From IMG/VR virus record IMGVR_UViG_3300013104_000192, positions 1 to 5,989 of that record: DNA of 5,989 nt. One strand, 5' to 3'. The DNA is from a virus. The notes under the pieces were generated by a model, which was given only the letters and a program-made list of their open reading frames with translations, had not been told where the DNA came from and searched no databases. Of the stretch, positions 1 to 5,989 are shown piece by piece; positions within the stretch are counted from its first letter, which is position 1; each line of letters starts with the position of its first letter. The position numbers and the translations under genes are program-made.

Positions 1-123
1 CTGGTAGTAACTTGCCAGGATCAAAGTCCTGGTTCACACCTGGTAGTAACTTGCCAGGATCAAAGTCCTGGTTCACACCTGGTAGTAACTTGCCAGGATC
101 AAAGTCCTGGTTCACACCTGGTA
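1..123. repeat. Perfect 39-bp tandem repeat, 3 full units (1-39, 40-78, 79-117) plus a 6-nt partial unit (118-123)
   Basis: Unit is CTGGTAGTAACTTGCCAGGATCAAAGTCCTGGTTCACAC, repeated without mismatch. It contains the inverted repeat CCAGGA-N6-TCCTGG and three CCWGG motifs per unit. Confidence 0.97.
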
Positions 124-185
124 ATCAAATAATATCTGCGAGCGTAGCTCGGTTCTTACCGTGTTATGCCCCAGGGAGCTTGTAA

Positions 186-1292
186 TCAGAGAGAAAAGGT
201 TGAGGGTTTTTCTTGTGTCTGTTCACTCGTAGACACTCGTTCTGTTAATGCAGGTTGTGCAATTTGTTGTTGATCAACAATAGGTGCAGGCTCAGACGTC
301 TTGCCCTGGGCAAAATAGTTAAATGGTCGGTCATTTTGTTCTATTAGCTTCTTGCAGTCAGATTGCGCCACATCGTGCAGAATGGTGCCTTGTTGCGTAT
401 ATGCTACATAGCGACCACCCTTTTTAATACAACCACTAAAAACAGGCTTAGAAGTGACTGTGTACTCAATTTGAGACTGGTCTACGTCAAAGGGTTTATT
501 AGGATTGTACTTAATTGCAATTGTCTCCATCCGGACATCGTTTTTTTCTTGTAGATCTGCATTTCTTTTTCCTGGATTCTCCAGGTCTTTACGTTGTTCC
601 GGAGTCAATCCGGATGCATCAATTTGTTTAGGTTTTTTATCCTGGGTAAATGCAGAAGGGTTAATCATCTTTTGAGTGCCTGGCTTAAAAAACATATAGC
701 CTGCATAAGTAGCTAGTGCCAGGATTCCGAAAATTACATAACCAAGTTTTTTAGGTAGCTTCATCTTGACATGATGAGCAGTAGCCGACTTGTAGTAACT
801 AAATAAATCTTTAGGATATTTAAATAAAAACTCGTTCTCTGCTAGCTCTCGAGACGATAACGATTGAGGCTGCTTTCTTACAGATCTCCAGTAATAAACA
901 CTTGCCAATTTAGCCCCGTAAGGACGATGTAAATGATAGTGTTCTCCAACAAGATCAAGGACAAATGCATTTAAAAAACGTGGGCTTTGTGTGATGAACC
1001 AAATATCATGGCCAGTATGTCGGTGCACTTGTAATTTCTGTACTACATCGTCTTTGTTTGCTGATGTTCCAGATCTGAAGCGCTCATGTTGTTGGGCTTC
1101 GTCATAGATAACGATTGAATTGTCTGGAGTGGTTCGCCAATCTTCAGGTGACTTTTCAACACCATCAATCTGCAAGCCATCGATGTCGGCAAAAATTTGA
1201 CGTTCAGGAAATTGTTTTTGTAGTTCTAAAATCTTTGAAACAACAAATAGGCTTTTCCCCGAGCCTGGTGTACCAGTAACCAAAATAATCAT
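186..1292 (-). CDS. Zot / pI-family phage assembly ATPase (inner-membrane morphogenesis protein)
   Basis: 368 aa. N-terminal Walker A at residues 6-14 (TGTPGSGKS, nt 1251-1277) and Walker B-like IVIYDEAQ. Single central TM helix (LGYVIFGILALATYAGYMFF, nt ~684-746) preceded by KMKLPKK, then a periplasmic C-terminal domain. SD GGAG lies 8 nt upstream of the ATG at 1292. It is the last gene of the structural module, as in Ff gene I and CTXphi zot. Confidence 0.9.
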   Translation of the reverse strand: MIILVTGTPGSGKSLFVVSKILELQKQFPERQIFADIDGLQIDGVEKSPEDWRTTPDNSIVIYDEAQQHERFRSGTSANKDDVVQKLQVHRHTGHDIWFITQSPRFLNAFVLDLVGEHYHLHRPYGAKLASVYYWRSVRKQPQSLSSRELAENEFLFKYPKDLFSYYKSATAHHVKMKLPKKLGYVIFGILALATYAGYMFFKPGTQKMINPSAFTQDKKPKQIDASGLTPEQRKDLENPGKRNADLQEKNDVRMETIAIKYNPNKPFDVDQSQIEYTVTSKPVFSGCIKKGGRYVAYTQQGTILHDVAQSDCKKLIEQNDRPFNYFAQGKTSEPAPIVDQQQIAQPALTERVSTSEQTQEKPSTFSL

Positions 1293-1357
1293 TTTATAAA
1301 CTCCGACAAGTTAATCGATGCCGTTATGTGCGTGCACGGCACGCCAAACGTCATCGA

Positions 1358-1642
1358 TCAACTTGATAGTTTCTGTATGCCCACCTGGGCAGATTTAATA
1401 ATTGCGTAAGTGCTCAAAGCACCTATAAGAATTCCGATAGCTTTATCACCGCCACACATACCCAGGAATGCCAAAGCAGTTGACGGGCCGAAGGTCATAT
1501 TTGAAGTTGCACGGGAGATATACATAGCGATAAATCCCTGGACAACACTTGTTGTAAAAAGACCGATTCCCGCACCAAGGAGAACGCGCTTCAGTGCAGA
1601 ACCAAGCAGCAAAGTTAATGCTGTATAAAGTATTTTTCCCAT
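1358..1642 (-). CDS. pVI-like minor coat / virion-cap membrane protein
   Basis: 94 aa, very hydrophobic with about 3 predicted helices and Gly/Ala-rich. Its ATG overlaps the stop of the upstream pIII-like gene by 1 nt (TAATG at 1640-1644), implying translational coupling. The position between pIII-like and pI matches the inovirus pVI slot. Assignment is by position and composition only. Confidence 0.6.
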   Translation of the reverse strand: MGKILYTALTLLLGSALKRVLLGAGIGLFTTSVVQGFIAMYISRATSNMTFGPSTALAFLGMCGGDKAIGILIGALSTYAIIKSAQVGIQKLSS

Positions 1643-2982
1643 TACTCACTACTCCCCCTTGACAAGCCCATAACGATATAAGCCCCAATTAAATAGGAGG
1701 ATCCAATGACAAAAGGTCGAATCATTGTCATGAAGTTACAAAGGGGTTCATAAGAGAAACTAGCACTTTGAGAGACACCCATAAAAGTGAGTTCAATTGG
1801 CTGTGGTTGTGGGCAAGTTTGAGTGAAAGTTACACGACTGCCATCGTCAAAACTTAGTGATAGATCTTTAATTTCTGGTTTTGTATCAGATGTATCTGTA
1901 GGCGAATCAGTCATCCATTTGTTGGCAGTTTCCCAATATCCCGCAACAGTTGCAGGGAAATTAATTGCAGCTTGTGCAGCTTGGCAGACAGTTGGTGCCC
2001 AGCCACAAAACTCAGGAAAATTTAGAGTTAAATCAGAAGGTTTTGGCGTTGTTGGTTCGCCTGTTGTTGGATCGATTGTAGTAGGAGGAGCTACAGAGCC
2101 AGTTGCAGCACCATTAGTAGGAATGGCTTGAGACTGGTTTAATTGTTGAGTTACAGCAGATGCAGGAACAATTTGTTTTTGCTCATCTTCAAGTGCTGTA
2201 TCAGCAACAGATGAAACATAAGCTTTTCCATCTGCTTTTTCTGCAGCAGCATCACTAATGATTTGAGAAGCTACAGAGTCATACGGTAAATATCTTTCTT
2301 CTCTATTTGGTTGAGCGTTGGGATTGTATGCAGGATTGTTTACACGAGAAACACCCGTATTACCATCATAAGAAGTTGTAGTACTTGATAGATAACAAAC
2401 AATTGATGTCGTTGAAGAAGATGAAAGGCTTACTTTGTCGTATTTCCAGGGGGTTTTACCAGACCATAAAGACAATACTGATTGGCAAATTGATGAAGGA
2501 ACACCAGGATAGCGAAAAGAAGATACACCCGTAGCAGAGCTTTCATATTTCCACATGTATAAATCAGTTGGCTGAGGTGTATTAGTAGTAGGATCTACAT
2601 AATATTTAACCTGATTATTTGCAGGATCCATTACATAATCAACTGCACCAATCAGAGCTTTAATCGCAAGATCGACAGCTAAAACAGCACCAGTTCTTAC
2701 AATCATTTTTGAAACTTGACCAGCCGCAGGCGTAATCGCAGCAGTACCTTTAGACGCATAATTTTTGCCGTTTATAACAACATTTTTAGCACCGTCATAA
2801 AACGTTGTAGCACCTTGTACCAAGCGTTTACTAACTGACCAACCTTCAGCAGCGACAGTTGTTGCATTGGCTGCTTGATAGAAAATGAAGTTAGGCGCAA
2901 TGGCTATAATGAAGATCTGTAGCCAGGTAATTAATTTAAAATTATTAAAATGCAAATTACGAAAACTAGAACGATTAACCAT
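1642..2982 (-). CDS. pIII-like adsorption / minor coat protein (secreted, C-terminally anchored)
   Basis: Start set at ATG 2982 (MVNRSSF...), not the TTG at 3015 used by the ORF track. GAGGGG lies 10 nt upstream. Signal-peptide-like N-terminus ends in AANA|TT. Ser/Thr-rich segment (SLSSSSTTSIV..SSTTTS) and Thr/Pro-rich linker (PPTTIDPTTGEPTTPKPSD). C-terminal hydrophobic anchor (FVIGSSYLIGAYIVMGL) followed by SRGSSE. It is the largest structural ORF and sits directly after the major coat gene. Confidence 0.6.
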   Translation of the reverse strand: MVNRSSFRNLHFNNFKLITWLQIFIIAIAPNFIFYQAANATTVAAEGWSVSKRLVQGATTFYDGAKNVVINGKNYASKGTAAITPAAGQVSKMIVRTGAVLAVDLAIKALIGAVDYVMDPANNQVKYYVDPTTNTPQPTDLYMWKYESSATGVSSFRYPGVPSSICQSVLSLWSGKTPWKYDKVSLSSSSTTSIVCYLSSTTTSYDGNTGVSRVNNPAYNPNAQPNREERYLPYDSVASQIISDAAAEKADGKAYVSSVADTALEDEQKQIVPASAVTQQLNQSQAIPTNGAATGSVAPPTTIDPTTGEPTTPKPSDLTLNFPEFCGWAPTVCQAAQAAINFPATVAGYWETANKWMTDSPTDTSDTKPEIKDLSLSFDDGSRVTFTQTCPQPQPIELTFMGVSQSASFSYEPLCNFMTMIRPFVIGSSYLIGAYIVMGLSRGSSE

Positions 2983-2998
2983 GACATACAAACCCCTC

Positions 2999-3025
2999 AA
3001 TAAAAGATGGGGCAACTAGTGCCCC
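2999..3025 (-). terminator. Intrinsic-terminator-like hairpin downstream of the major coat gene
   Basis: Minus strand reads GGGGCA-CTAGT-TGCCCC (stem 3009-3014 / 3020-3025) followed by ATCTTTTATT. It lies between the coat stop (3043) and the pIII-like start (2982), analogous to the terminator after gene VIII in Ff phages. Confidence 0.55.
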
Positions 3026-3042
3026 GATTACAACTTGTTTTA

Positions 3043-3276
3043 TTACAAAGCTCGGCGAATGATTTTCCACCCTTTAATCGCAACCAAGACAAGCAAGAAT
3101 GCAGCACCTACAAGACCAATTGGAGTAATTAAATCGTTAATTTCAGAAGTTACGGCAGTAACGTCAATTGCAGCGTTTGCAGCATTAGTAAGTACTAATG
3201 CAGAAGCACCAGTAACAACGGCAAGCGGTAAACGTTTAGATTGTGGTTGAGTTTGAACAGTTTTAAGTTCGCTCAT
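3043..3276 (-). CDS. Major coat protein (pVIII-like) precursor
   Basis: 77 aa. Signal peptide ends in AANA|AIDV. The predicted 42-aa mature peptide has an acidic N-terminus (D3, E10, D13), a hydrophobic core (ITPIGLVGAAFLLVLVAI) and a basic C-terminus (KGWKIIRRAL), which is the classic inovirus capsid layout. SD AGGGGA lies ~7 nt upstream of the ATG. Confidence 0.8.
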   Translation of the reverse strand: MSELKTVQTQPQSKRLPLAVVTGASALVLTNAANAAIDVTAVTSEINDLITPIGLVGAAFLLVLVAIKGWKIIRRAL

Positions 3277-3288
3277 GGTTTTTCCCCT

Positions 3289-3465
3289 TTATTTGAGCAT
3301 TCGACCAATTTTTTTAAAGCCCCAGGCAATAACAATACAAATCGCTATAGCTGTAGCTATATCACCCGCTTGGTCGTACGTGATTTCGGGTAATCCTAGA
3401 AAACCAACTTGAACCCATGTAAGGCACTGGTTTGTAGCCTGGTCAATTTGGGCACATTGGTACAT
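3289..3465 (-). CDS. Small coat-like membrane protein (candidate pVII/pIX-type minor virion protein), 58 aa
   Basis: Translated by hand because it falls below the ORF-track length cut-off: MYQCAQIDQATNQCLTWVQVGFLGLPEITYDQAGDIATAIAICIVIAWGFKKIGRMLK. The C-terminal half has the acidic / TM / basic coat-like layout. An in-frame TAA sits immediately upstream of the ATG. Its stop TAA overlaps the SD of the major coat gene. No clear SD of its own. Confidence 0.45.
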   Translation of the reverse strand: MYQCAQIDQATNQCLTWVQVGFLGLPEITYDQAGDIATAIAICIVIAWGFKKIGRMLK

Positions 3466-3477
3466 TTTTTATGATCC

Positions 3478-3505
3478 AAAAAAAACGTAAATCCGAAGAT
3501 TTACG
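3478..3505 (-). terminator. Intrinsic terminator after the ssDNA-binding gene
   Basis: Minus strand reads CGTAAATC-TTCG-GATTTACG (stems 3498-3505 / 3486-3493) followed by a run of 8 T (3478-3485). The hairpin overlaps the TAA stop at 3501-3503. Confidence 0.65.
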
Positions 3506-3737
3506 CTAAGTCCGCAGACGAAAATACAAGGCTTCGATTGCGCTGATGTAATGTTAATTGAGAGATAGTTTCACCAGTTTGAGCAAGGGCTTCTAAGGTA
3601 GCTGCATCTTGTGGTTTGTCAGGATTAATGTATTTGCGAACAGGCTCCATAACCTCTACGAAATAAAAAGCCCCGCCATCAGTTTTTTTAGTTCCTTTTT
3701 GAACTTGTGCGTTCTCAATGATTGTTTTTACAGACAT
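3501..3737 (-). CDS. Putative ssDNA-binding protein (gene V-like)
   Basis: 78 aa, located between rep and the coat genes (the gene V slot), in the same size class as known inovirus ssDNA-binding proteins. The N-terminus (VKTIIENAQVQKGTKKTDGGAFYFVEV) resembles the strand / basic loop / aromatic strand layout of gene V proteins as I recall them; this is unverified. Strong SD AGGTGG lies 8 nt upstream of the ATG. Confidence 0.5.
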   Translation of the reverse strand: MSVKTIIENAQVQKGTKKTDGGAFYFVEVMEPVRKYINPDKPQDAATLEALAQTGETISQLTLHQRNRSLVFSSADLA

Positions 3738-3784
3738 TTTTTTCCACCTTGTATTTATACGGTTAATAAATCAGTACAATTAGT

Positions 3785-3832
3785 ATGTTGTCATGTTGTC
3801 ATGTTGTCAATACAGCAAGTAATCATGTTGTT
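3785..3832. repeat. 8-bp iteron array: ATGTTGTC x3 in perfect tandem (3785-3808) plus a degenerate copy ATGTTGTT (3825-3832)
   Basis: Read directly from the sequence. It lies in the divergent intergenic region between the plus-strand ORF (3873) and the minus-strand ssDNA-binding gene (3737). On the minus strand, a TTGACA -35-like hexamer (plus coordinates 3805-3810) is part of the array. A TATAAAT -10-like element lies at 3753-3759, but its spacing to any -35 is not convincing. Confidence 0.8.
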
Positions 3833-3872
3833 AAAATAAATTTTGTCAGGTGCATAAAGGTTTGAAAAATCG

Positions 3873-4061
3873 ATGATTTCCGCATATCTAAGGATTAACA
3901 AAAAAGAGGAAAAATCTCTCTTAGAGTTATCAGAACAAGTTAATAAGCAGAGACTAGATTTAAAAATGGGCGTACTAAAAGAAAGTGAAATACTTCATCG
4001 ACTTATCAATGAAGCATTCAAAAAGGCAAAAGCCGAAGATGGTGAAGTGAAAATTAAATAA
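3873..4061 (+). CDS. Hypothetical small ribbon-helix-helix-like DNA-binding protein (candidate repressor), the only plus-strand gene
   Basis: 62 aa. An N-terminal beta-strand-like ISAYLRI is followed by two predicted helices (KKEEKSLLELSEQVN and ESEILHRLINEAFKKAKA). The ORF exactly fills an otherwise non-coding 316-bp gap in a compact genome. Its 3' end overlaps the rep 3' end by 8 nt. The SD is weak (AAAGG, 12 nt upstream). No minus-strand ORF longer than 20 aa was found in the gap. Confidence 0.4.
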   Translation: MISAYLRINKKEEKSLLELSEQVNKQRLDLKMGVLKESEILHRLINEAFKKAKAEDGEVKIK

Positions 4062-5235
4062 TTCCGCGATAAGTCATGAAATCAATTTCATGACTTTCTA
4101 ATGTATCGATTTCTTTTTGTATCAATAGACTCAAGTTATATTCAGCAGATCCAGAGCCAAAACAGCCATTTTTATAATCCTCTTCAAGCCAGACCAAATA
4201 TTCATGTCTCTTCTGATACTTTTTAAGAATATCAAAAACAATCTTTTCAACTTCAGTAAGCAAAATGCTAGTTAACTCTGTTTCTTCAGCTAGTTCTTCA
4301 TCTGACTTTTCAGCAATATCTAAATCAGCCTTAGCACCACGTGACCAAACTAATTGACGCTGACCTTTAAAGGTCAAAGCAAACTCTTGAAATAATTTTG
4401 AAGATAATTTTCCATGTATTTCAATATCTTCAACAGAGAGCTGAAGTAAATCAAATGCGGTAAAAGAATCCCCACGACCTTTTTTAATATGTCCTTTCGT
4501 TAATTCGTTCTCGATTCCCCATTTTGAAACATACTTATCTGCATAAGTACCGTCCCTTAAATCCAGGCCGTGTTCATTAGGCATTGGTAAACCAGATTTA
4601 ACACAAGCAGCTTGCCATGCTCTTAGTAATTCACATGTAAAAATTGATTCAAGTTGAATTGATAAATCATTGTTTTCACAGAATAAAAGTATATGAAAAT
4701 GGGGATGCCAACCATTAGAACCAAAAGTTACTTCAAAAGAACGAACCATGTGAACACGACCCAAAAGAGCCAAAGTTTCACGACCTAAACGGCCCTCAAA
4801 AAATCTTTTTAAGGCAGCACGCTGAGCGTAAATCATGCCTTTCAAATATGTATCTGAAGAGTGCGGATTAGTAAGCGTTAATAGCCTAAGCACGCCACCT
4901 CTATTTTTCCATTCGGCACATGCTTTTTTTAATTCTTCTCTACGTTTTTCAGTAACTTGCTTTGCACAGACAGGACATGACCAAATAGAACCGCAACGCT
5001 GAACATTAGCCCAGTGAGCCTTTTGACGTTCTTCATTGAACATAACAGAGCGTTTCTTTTCTTTATCGATACGCTTCTTTAAACAGTTAGTTACTCTTTC
5101 AGTAGGTAATAATTTTGATGCTTGATCTTGAAGTATGTAATCGTGAAGTCTCTCAAAGCCTTTATTTTCAAGCTTGGCATGAGATTTCGTAAATATACCA
5201 AGGGCGGATTTTTTTTGACTTAATCCTAGATTCAT
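4054..5235 (-). CDS. HUH-superfamily rolling-circle replication initiator (pC194/pUB110 Rep_1-like, phiX174 A-like motif set)
   Basis: Motif I LLTLTNP. Motif II HUH in GWHPHFHILLF (HPHFH at nt 4693-4707). Motif III YVSKWGIENELTK (Tyr codon at nt 4531-4533). Cys/His cluster HWANVQRCGSIWSCPVC. Start set at ATG 5235 (393 aa), because the TTG at 5292 used by the ORF track lies in the loop of the upstream terminator hairpin. The SD is weak. Confidence 0.85.
   Translation of the reverse strand: MNLGLSQKKSALGIFTKSHAKLENKGFERLHDYILQDQASKLLPTERVTNCLKKRIDKEKKRSVMFNEERQKAHWANVQRCGSIWSCPVCAKQVTEKRREELKKACAEWKNRGGVLRLLTLTNPHSSDTYLKGMIYAQRAALKRFFEGRLGRETLALLGRVHMVRSFEVTFGSNGWHPHFHILLFCENNDLSIQLESIFTCELLRAWQAACVKSGLPMPNEHGLDLRDGTYADKYVSKWGIENELTKGHIKKGRGDSFTAFDLLQLSVEDIEIHGKLSSKLFQEFALTFKGQRQLVWSRGAKADLDIAEKSDEELAEETELTSILLTEVEKIVFDILKKYQKRHEYLVWLEEDYKNGCFGSGSAEYNLSLLIQKEIDTLESHEIDFMTYRGII
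4071..4096. other. Perfect 26-nt palindrome (11-bp stem, 4-nt loop)
   Basis: AAGTCATGAAA-TCAA-TTTCATGACTT. It starts 10 nt after the stop of the plus-strand ORF and lies inside the last codons of rep (..SHEIDFMTY..). Only 3 T follow it on the plus strand, so it would be a weak intrinsic terminator. Confidence 0.5.
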
Positions 5236-5274
5236 ATGATAATAGTCCCGTGTGTTACCAGTACACAAAGTTTC

Positions 5275-5304
5275 AAAAAGGACCGTCTGCAAACGGTCCT
5301 TTTT
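5275..5304. terminator. Bidirectional intrinsic terminator between the RHH regulator gene and rep
   Basis: AAAAAGGACCGT-CTGCAA-ACGGTCCTTTTT. Perfect 12-bp stem (5275-5286 / 5293-5304) with a 6-nt loop. The A-tract/T-tract flanks mean a U-run follows the stem on either strand. Confidence 0.7.
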
Positions 5305-5316
5305 CTTTCCCCAAAA

Positions 5317-5514
5317 TTAAATGTTGTCTTTTTGTCTTGTTGTCATATTAGCACCTTTAGATTTTAAAAATAAATCTTGCTGTGCGTACTGCTTCACATA
5401 TTGGCGCATAAATTTTCTCAATTCCTGTGAAGCTGTAGAATCTTGGGATTTACAGCAAGCTATGAAAGTGTCTTTTAATTCCTGATCAACACGAATTGGC
5501 AAATTAGATAACAT
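5317..5514 (-). CDS. Ribbon-helix-helix transcriptional regulator, RelB/DinJ-like
   Basis: 65 aa. NLPIRVDQELKDTFIACCKSQDSTASQELRKFMRQYVKQ fits the RHH pattern (beta strand, helix A, helix B) and resembles the RelB/DinJ consensus (I-R-V/I-D-x-x-L-K ... S-x-x-x-x-x-F-L/M-R-Q-x-V) as I recall it. SD AGGAG lies 8 nt upstream of the ATG. It is the first gene of the rep operon. Confidence 0.65.
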   Translation of the reverse strand: MLSNLPIRVDQELKDTFIACCKSQDSTASQELRKFMRQYVKQYAQQDLFLKSKGANMTTRQKDNI

Positions 5515-5532
5515 GGCTATAACTCCTATTTT

Positions 5533-5570
5533 GTATATACACAGTATATACCTAAGAATTAAAATGTAAA
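5533..5570 (-). promoter_or_regulatory. Sigma70-like promoter with overlapping paired palindromic operator candidates
   Basis: On the minus strand: -35 TTTACA (plus 5565-5570), 16-nt spacer, -10 TATACT (plus 5543-5548). Two copies of the 8-bp palindrome GTATATAC (5533-5540 and 5544-5551, 11 bp centre to centre) overlap the -10 and the predicted start region, just upstream of the RHH gene. Confidence 0.5.
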
Positions 5571-5661
5571 TACGTCTTAGGCTAAATTACTCCTAGCAAA
5601 TTTAGGTAGCAAATAAAAAGAATCCCACAAAAAAAGGCGAATATATAAAAGATCTTATCTG

Positions 5662-5802
5662 TCATATAGAACACTTAACCAAAGAGAGGAAAGAACAAAA
5701 TAACATCCCTGTAATGAAGAAAAACATTGCAATAAAAGCAAAAGTCTTAATAGGAAAAAATTGCATTTTAAACTTAAGTACATGTGCATCATGTTTTGTC
5801 AT
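5662..5802 (-). CDS. Hypothetical 46-aa single-TM hydrophobic peptide
   Basis: Translated by hand: MTKHDAHVLKFKMQFFPIKTFAFIAMFFFITGMLFCSFLSLVKCSI. Its ATG overlaps the TGA of the upstream repeat-containing ORF (ATGA at 5799-5802). It is Phe-rich in an AT-rich region, so it could be a chance ORF. Confidence 0.3.
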   Translation of the reverse strand: MTKHDAHVLKFKMQFFPIKTFAFIAMFFFITGMLFCSFLSLVKCSI

Positions 5803-5989
5803 ATTTTGCCAATCCTATAAAATTCACAAGTGTTGATTTTACTCATTTTTTTAATCACCGGTTTAAGCCTGGAGAGAGACCAGCAATGTAATAAAATGCC
5901 AATTAATATAGCTGGTAGTAACTTGCCAGGATCAAAGTCCTGGTTCACACCTGGTAGTAACTTGCCAGGATCAAAGTCCTGGTTCACAC
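5799..5989 (-). CDS. Uncertain ORF running out of the 39-bp repeat array (13-aa repeats VNQDFDPGKLLPG, then a unique 37-aa tail)
   Basis: The frame is open through the repeats and to the window edge. The unique tail is AILIGILLHCWSLSRLKPVIKKMSKINTCEFYRIGKI. There is no ATG; the only candidate starts are the GTG in each repeat, and none has an SD. Three of the six frames of the repeat are open, so openness alone is weak evidence. Confidence 0.25.
   Translation of the reverse strand, partial: VNQDFDPGKLLPGVNQDFDPGKLLPAILIGILLHCWSLSRLKPVIKKMSKINTCEFYRIGKI
5912..5989. repeat. Same 39-bp tandem repeat, 2 full units (5912-5950, 5951-5989), truncated by the window end
   Basis: Identical to positions 1-78. 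The last base of the window is unit position 39 and the first base of the window is unit position 1. Confidence 0.97.

Follow-up and report, generated by a model that had tools for sequence, protein, structure and literature searches.

Terminal 39-bp repeats of an Acinetobacter filamentous phage sequence are best explained by a single array on a circular genome

The window analysed here is a DNA stretch of 5,989 nucleotides (IMG/VR record IMGVR_UViG_3300013104_000192, positions 1 to 5,989), in which nearly every long open reading frame lies on the minus strand. Domain and PHROG matches identified the inovirus gene set of Zot, DUF2523, Phage_Coat_B, TspB-like pIII and rolling-circle Rep (Table 1), and the Zot/pI-type ATPase, the major coat protein and the pVI-like DUF2523 protein (PF05707, PF05356, and PF10734) stand in the conserved inovirus order. 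The only phage record matching the window is M02 (OQ693633, a circular record of 6243 bp), with about 81–88% identity across the morphogenesis genes. On the basis of inovirus gene content and this sole match the window is classed as the complete genome of an Acinetobacter filamentous phage. In exact-protein look-ups the coat, DUF2523 and 46-aa proteins were found in L004 (an ENA contig), L005, and L035 (a Logan contig), and no record was returned for the window Zot.

M02 is one of the Af filamentous phages of A. baumannii, known both as prophages and as circular contigs of plasmid-like form (PMC11209303, PMC12285184). The window shares with M02 (AfM2) and Af group A the block order 58-aa protein, coat protein, pIII-like protein, DUF2523 and Zot, as well as the same 39-bp repeat unit in the same place past zot, but the copy number of the array differs from that of M02. 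The replication modules differ: M02 and the A. baumannii prophages carry a Phage_CRI/G2P initiator together with dif-like sites, whereas the window has a ribbon-helix-helix (RHH) gene and Rep_1 in their place and no dif-like site. An initiator of the G2P or Phage_CRI type is absent from the window. Its Rep_1 (PF01446) shares no similarity with the M02 Rep, yet it likewise is an initiator of the rolling-circle type, from a family already present in PHROGs (phrog_11698). The window phage is a new Af-group member with a plasmid-type replication module.

Table 1. Features of the 5,989-nt window.
Feature	Position	Strand	Basis or remark
39-bp array, left part: 3 full units and 6-nt partial ctggta (3.15 units)	1-123		100% periodic match
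Conserved non-coding element, zot 3' end up to array	124-246	-	alignment with L002 and L003; long perfect stretches against M02
G+C-rich hairpin CGAGC-GTA-GCTCG, about 15 nt before array	139-151	-	read from sequence
zot, pI-like assembly ATPase, final morphogenesis gene	186-1292	-	PF05707 Zot, E = 1.1e-17
DUF2523 protein, pVI-like	1358-1642	-	PF10734
Structural block: 78-aa, 58-aa, major coat, pIII/TspB-like and DUF2523 proteins	1358-3737	-	
TspB/pIII-like protein, 457 aa	1642-3015	-	within structural block
Inovirus major coat protein	3043-3276	-	PF05356
Rep_1 initiator, plasmid-type rolling-circle; 393 aa as called in L004	4054-5292	-	PF01446; phrog_11698, E = 4.8e-192
Ribbon-helix-helix regulator heading replication module	5317-5514	-	PF19839; phrog_19878
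46-aa hydrophobic ORF, first called gene past array	5662-5802	-	gene call in L004 and L035
Spacer on the other side of array (TTGGCATTTTATTACA...)	5803-5911	-	DNA conserved in relatives with and without array
39-bp array, right part: exactly 2.0 units	5912-5989		identical to 1-78

The window is a module chimera, with morphogenesis genes about 81–97% identical to those of Af group-A phages and an RHH and Rep_1 module (4054-5514, minus strand) that resembles the 2.3-kb R1-type Acinetobacter plasmids (pA85-1a, CP103343) at about 70% nucleotide identity. The spacer between the DUF2523 gene and zot holds a 37-nt hairpin-forming element (1318-1354, with a GCGTGC-CGT-GCACGC core), which is 89% identical to pA85-1a (L003 1428-1464) and highly conserved in M02 and in the A. 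baumannii prophage L032; beside it, on the plus strand, stands CAACTTGATAG, which resembles the pC194/phiX-type nick motif. Short repeats ATGTTGTC and TGTTGTCT (GACAACAT on the coding strand) are present at 3785-3809 and 5322-5344, overlap a predicted promoter (3810-3782, minus strand), and recur in pA85-1a (L003 1535-1584). Judged by sequence, these repeats may serve the plasmid-type module as operators or as binding sites for Rep.

Direct comparison confirmed that positions 1-78 are identical to positions 5912-5989, and a perfect identity of 78 nt at the two ends cannot be of chance origin. Tandem Repeats Finder detected the 39-bp unit CTGGTAGTAACTTGCCAGGATCAAAGTCCTGGTTCACAC at 1-123 (3.2 copies, 100% match) and the same unit at 5912-5989 (2.0 copies, 100% match). 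The base at 5911 (g) breaks the 39-bp period, and the periodic match extends exactly over 1..123 and 5912..5989, so that the phase is set by the sequence itself and the window both starts and ends on a unit boundary. The identical ends and their common phase had been pointed out in the first-pass annotation, whose size arithmetic is also right: a circle of 5989 bp would hold 5 units and 6 nt, one of 5950 bp 4 units and 6 nt, and one of 5911 bp 3 units and 6 nt. The same annotation attached significance to the fact that two arbitrary cut points would fall in phase only about once in 39 cases; this argument carries no biological weight, since a graph assembler ends its contigs at the branch node whose start is the first repeat base.

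The unique sequences that follow the arrays at either window end are adjacent both in an independent assembly and in a relative. In the circular M02 record the counterpart of window 5797-5911 is joined to that of 124 onwards through about 1.6 units. The independent assembly, L004 (MEGAHIT contig k141_3247871, 5974 bp), matches the window at 100% identity throughout the genome. A terminal overlap of 141 bp closes it to a circle of 5833 bp, and it is opened inside zot; it therefore runs straight across the array, which there consists of 1 unit and 6 nt (582-632). Because the flanks are contiguous in both M02 and L004, the two terminal arrays of the window are halves of a single internal array, and that one array on a closed sequence is concerned here can be regarded as almost certain. 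The circular closure proposed from the window alone is in this way upheld by sequences opened elsewhere. It should be considered that a circular path in an assembly graph is the same for a circular molecule and for head-to-tail tandem prophage copies, so the genome would exist either in circular replicative form or in copies joined head to tail; the window itself shows no sign of integration. A single 39-bp array lies in the spacer between zot, the end of the morphogenesis operon, and the regulatory and replication module, and the window would have been linearised inside this array, with the result that 1-78 was written a second time as 5912-5989. Taken as a whole, the explanation that a circular phage genome was cut within one 39-bp array, that the identical ends are assembly overlap and that the array is probably non-coding is very likely to be correct.

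The way in which such a cut may arise is illustrated by L035, a contig produced with k=31 and 100% identical to the window, which stops exactly 30 nt (k-1) into the array and shows how graph assemblers halt at the branch node made by the repeat. De Bruijn graphs were simulated for circles composed of the unique part of the window and n units. At k=79 the graph was identical for every n of 3 units or more and contained a single in-branch node, equal to window 5912-5989, and a single out-branch node, equal to window 46-123. When closed walks were started from the in-branch node, the shortest one to include all edges was 5989 nt long and reproduced the window base for base. An assembler with 78-nt nodes would close its walk on the node at the first base of the repeat, leaving the ends in phase, and the start phase, the 3.15 left units, the 2.0 right units and the 78-nt identity all follow from assembly with such nodes. 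Most likely, therefore, 5912-5989 is the DNA of 1-78 repeated as an assembly overlap the size of one 78-nt graph node, and the circle represented is one of 5911 bp with 3 units and 6 nt, where 3 units, the smallest number visible in the graph, should not be taken as the true copy number. As deduced from the simulation, the assembler would have used k=79, and the overlap of 78 nt with the corresponding node size is on the whole a likely reading. MEGAHIT and SPAdes were ruled out as the source of the 78-nt overlap, because their overlaps equal an odd k and a terminal overlap of 77 or 79 nt is incompatible with the window sequence.

The other sizes listed in the first-pass annotation correspond to ends that overlap by one unit or not at all, that is, to a 5950-bp circle (4 units and 6 nt) or a 5989-bp circle (5 units and 6 nt), in which the cut at a unit boundary would come from software rotation, from trimming, or from a k=39 graph with a loop count set by coverage. 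Four or five units are biologically plausible, as relatives reach from 4.5 to at least 7 units, and, reasoning from the simulation, a walk with 39-nt nodes and three passes through the loop would also start and end in phase. Against this, one would have to assume a 1-in-39 coincidence, or else a loop count that is not minimal, while the minimal walk at k=79 already gives all the details of the window with no free parameter. These two larger circles are accordingly unlikely, and of the three sizes the best fit is a 5911-bp circle whose 78-nt overlap was left untrimmed. The statement that the window does not fix the copy number proved well founded, since any n of 3 or more gives one and the same graph and the relatives carry between 1.15 and at least 7 units.

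The behaviour described is that of de Bruijn circular contigs with direct terminal repeats ("DTR"), which likewise have identical ends and an end at the branch node of a repeat, and whose overlap of one graph node would probably apply to the window as well; it is seen also in L004 (141 nt) and L035 (30 nt). Ordinary "DTR" contigs, however, duplicate unique sequence, whereas the overlap of the window lies wholly inside a tandem repeat and hides the copy number. Ends that fall in phase within a tandem repeat are thus the mark of graph assembly, not of biology. The finding is a combination of two known things, the terminal redundancy of circular contigs and a variable-number tandem repeat (VNTR). 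In practice the window is to be handled as a circular phage genome of about 5.9 kb, whose terminal overlap needs trimming and whose array is of unfixed length, and not as a prophage with att sites.

The first-pass annotation also put forward a prophage flanked by attL/attR-like arrays. In favour of such an integrated prophage, direct repeats stand at both ends of a phage-sized segment, and relatives of the window phage do integrate. In the chromosomal relatives L030, L032, and L033, however, the array is located inside the prophage, just past zot, and the junction regions of the integrated relatives carry dif-type sites instead. The canonical 28-bp dif ATTTCGCATAATGTATATTATGTTAAAT is found at L032 12809, and paired inverted dif-like sites are present in L032 (4201-4296, 6474, and 10337-10631), likewise in L030, and in L001 (113, 3889-3984, and 5929); sites of this kind are used by XerCD-dependent filamentous phages. 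The window contains neither a tRNA nor an integrase or transposase (recombinase) domain, nor any match to the dif-like 13-mer when up to 2 mismatches were allowed, and the independent contig L004 closes to a circle. Under the att reading the 39-mer was also expected in phage-free relatives of the host, but the 22-nt core of the unit had no match in 185,579 GTDB representative genomes (one per species), and none in JGI metagenomes or PLSDB plasmids. In view of these data the att reading was not sustained and is considered extremely improbable, and we infer that the array plays no part in integration. As the window lacks a dif-like site, its phage is probably purely episomal.

The integrated relatives L030 and L032 resemble prophages of the CTXphi, VGJphi, and YpfPhi type, which integrate by XerCD at dif and are often tandem, in the dif location, the inverted sites and the partial tandem copies. 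The window differs from this type in having no dif-like site at all and in its 39-bp array, which is unrelated to dif and placed away from the junctions. In CTXphi the ctxAB genes directly follow zot, and L030 and L032 also have cargo in this place. The L030 and L032 prophages, partly in tandem, are situated beside the canonical chromosomal dif next to a fimbrial operon.

The loci of relatives were collected by a protein search with the open reading frame running through the array, and the matches were solely loci of this phage group. The array comprises 1.15 units in L004, about 1.6 in M02, 2 in L009, 2 in L032 (a prophage in a 447-kb A. baumannii contig), and 4.5 in L030 (a 4.05-Mb chromosome), where it is accompanied by a microhomology deletion into the next ORF; it reaches at least 7 units in L033 and L034, in each of which a 100-N scaffold gap falls inside the array, and the contig L031 starts inside it. 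With head-to-tail units and a copy number that is polymorphic among close relatives, the array is, as read from these sequences, a copy-number-variable minisatellite of 1.15 to at least 7 units across nine sources. Like other minisatellites and VNTRs it consists of perfect head-to-tail units and breaks or gaps short-read assemblies, several public A. baumannii assemblies among them; unlike a neutral VNTR, its unit is more conserved between lineages than the neighbouring coding DNA. The number of units would change by slipped-strand mispairing during rolling-circle, single-strand replication, a mode of replication that favours such slippage.

Three assemblies of the 100%-identical genome give 1.15 units (L004, MEGAHIT k141), at least 2 units (L035, with its k=31 break), and at least 3 units (the window). 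This disagreement reflects either true heterogeneity or collapse by one of the assemblers. Candidate source reads are the run SRR6956985 and those underlying ERZ27252462, each with 100% identity to the window; the run and analysis accessions gave no hit in the literature.

Within IMG/VR the unit core was matched only in L009, and among 50,697 phage records only in M02. A relaxed palindrome pattern gave five single chance matches in metagenomes, none of them an array, and a Zot-based scan of the representative genomes returned three distant relatives with an array in none. Only a small sublineage of Acinetobacter filamentous phages carries the array by these searches, and it is not mentioned in the papers on Af phages (PMC11209303, PMC12285184). 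In this sublineage of clinically relevant phages a 39-bp array that is conserved in sequence and variable in copy number could serve as a typing marker.

The place occupied by the array, equivalent to window 123 / 5912, has varied content in relatives with the same flanks. It is empty in L011-L014, holds a 75-aa ORF (MTIKYYDLNNE..., no Pfam match) in L006 (8177-8450), L015 (2131-2360), and L018, and an ORF of about 30 aa in L007, L008, and L010. Such variety between conserved flanks identifies the site past zot as a cargo hot spot and the array as dispensable. The conserved element of about 120 nt at 124-246 is also present in the 2.3-kb Rep_1 Acinetobacter plasmids, in the same orientation to rep (L002 1450-1525; L003 1733-1843). 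It is separate from the repeat and, to judge from its conservation and position, a candidate single-strand origin, terminator or packaging element, which raises the idea that small Rep_1 plasmids use or borrow phage cis-functions. In the hairpin at 139-151, with which this element ends, the stem reads CGGGC...GCCCG in L009 and L030-L034, a compensatory change on both sides of the stem.

Conservation of the unit beyond the level of zot is a misfit with a purely neutral repeat and leads to the question of function. Each unit contains an operator-like palindrome, CCAGGA-N6-TCCTGG, and the array may be considered as a functional cis-element in which this palindrome is a candidate protein site and the copy number tunes the effect; such a role is a tentative possibility, compatible with the circular-closure explanation. 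Equally tentative is the proposal that the protein comes from the morphogenesis module or is recruited by it, for instance to initiate packaging or assembly or to titrate a host factor. When the window is compared with L032, identity is 97–100% for the unit with about 20 nt on each side and about 85% for zot, and in 30 units from nine sources only two positions vary, neither of them in the palindrome arms. The array goes together with the morphogenesis module, independently of the Rep type. In Ff phages the packaging signal lies directly after the last morphogenesis gene, in the Ff intergenic region, and the array has a corresponding position, as it starts 62 nt past the zot stop codon on the coding strand.

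On the other side, the array is dispensable, with no array in L011-L014 and small ORFs in its place in other relatives with the same flanks, and its single-strand folding is unremarkable: one 6-bp hairpin per unit with -5.1 kcal/mol and z-scores of -1.4 to -2.2 against shuffles. The Rfam scan gave no match anywhere in the window and the promoter scan no promoter-like site in the array, while the high identity of units could stem from recent recombination in a very mosaic region. Conservation of the unit may thus reflect either constraint on a candidate protein-binding element or such recombination, and the more specific proposal of a conserved, tunable cis-element of the morphogenesis module, whose invariant palindrome would bind an assembly protein of the phage or a protein of the host, appears rather unlikely. 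If it were true, slippage in the unit number would act as a contingency switch that tunes packaging or the expression of the adjacent cargo and regulatory genes.

Some known elements were compared with the array in this respect. Iterons and the Ff packaging hairpin resemble it in that a rolling-circle replicon has direct repeats, or a structured element, in its main intergenic region. Iterons, however, are inherited with their cognate Rep, whereas the array is common to two unrelated Rep families, and Rep-specific iterons were excluded, as the array occurs with the unrelated initiators Rep_1 (window) and Phage_CRI with G2P_X_C (M02 and L032). An Ff-type packaging hairpin is argued against by the folding, which shows no long stable hairpin and is not significantly better than that of shuffles.

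Avoidance of restriction sites was ruled out as well, as CCWGG is enriched and not avoided. In the phage outside the array 18 CCWGG sites were observed, where base composition predicts 4.7 and a Markov estimate 8.9; there is no enrichment in the host flanks, and each array unit contains three such sites.

A coding role for the array was also considered, in which 13-residue repeats (NQDFDPGKLLPGV/M) would be added to the N-terminus of a small membrane protein read on the phage coding strand, or to a small ORF on the opposite strand. The unit length of 39 is divisible by 3, an open frame leads across the array to a hydrophobic stretch in the window, L009, L031, and L032, and NCBI annotation has such ORFs in some records; moreover, the deletion in L030 happens to stay in frame and the sole C/T variant of the unit is synonymous in this frame. 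M02, however, as read from its sequence, has an in-frame stop and a frame-shifting partial unit, and L015 retains the downstream DNA yet has a stop and no start codon in the frame. A weak test of the downstream codon changes between the window and L032 gave 0 synonymous and 9 non-synonymous changes, with 2 and 8 in the 46-aa ORF used as control. Among 5.8 billion proteins the homologues of the array ORF were these loci only, and the ORF on the opposite strand had none. The PHROG search of the array ORFs returned no match, no gene was called for the array ORF in L004, and reading of the sequence revealed no plausible ribosome-binding site for it. According to these facts a coding function is quite improbable, and the array is probably non-coding.

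In L030 (10155-10175) a deletion at a TGAT microhomology joins the partial unit in frame to the 46-aa hydrophobic ORF, and this fusion of array and ORF yields a predicted protein of 99 aa (P0001).
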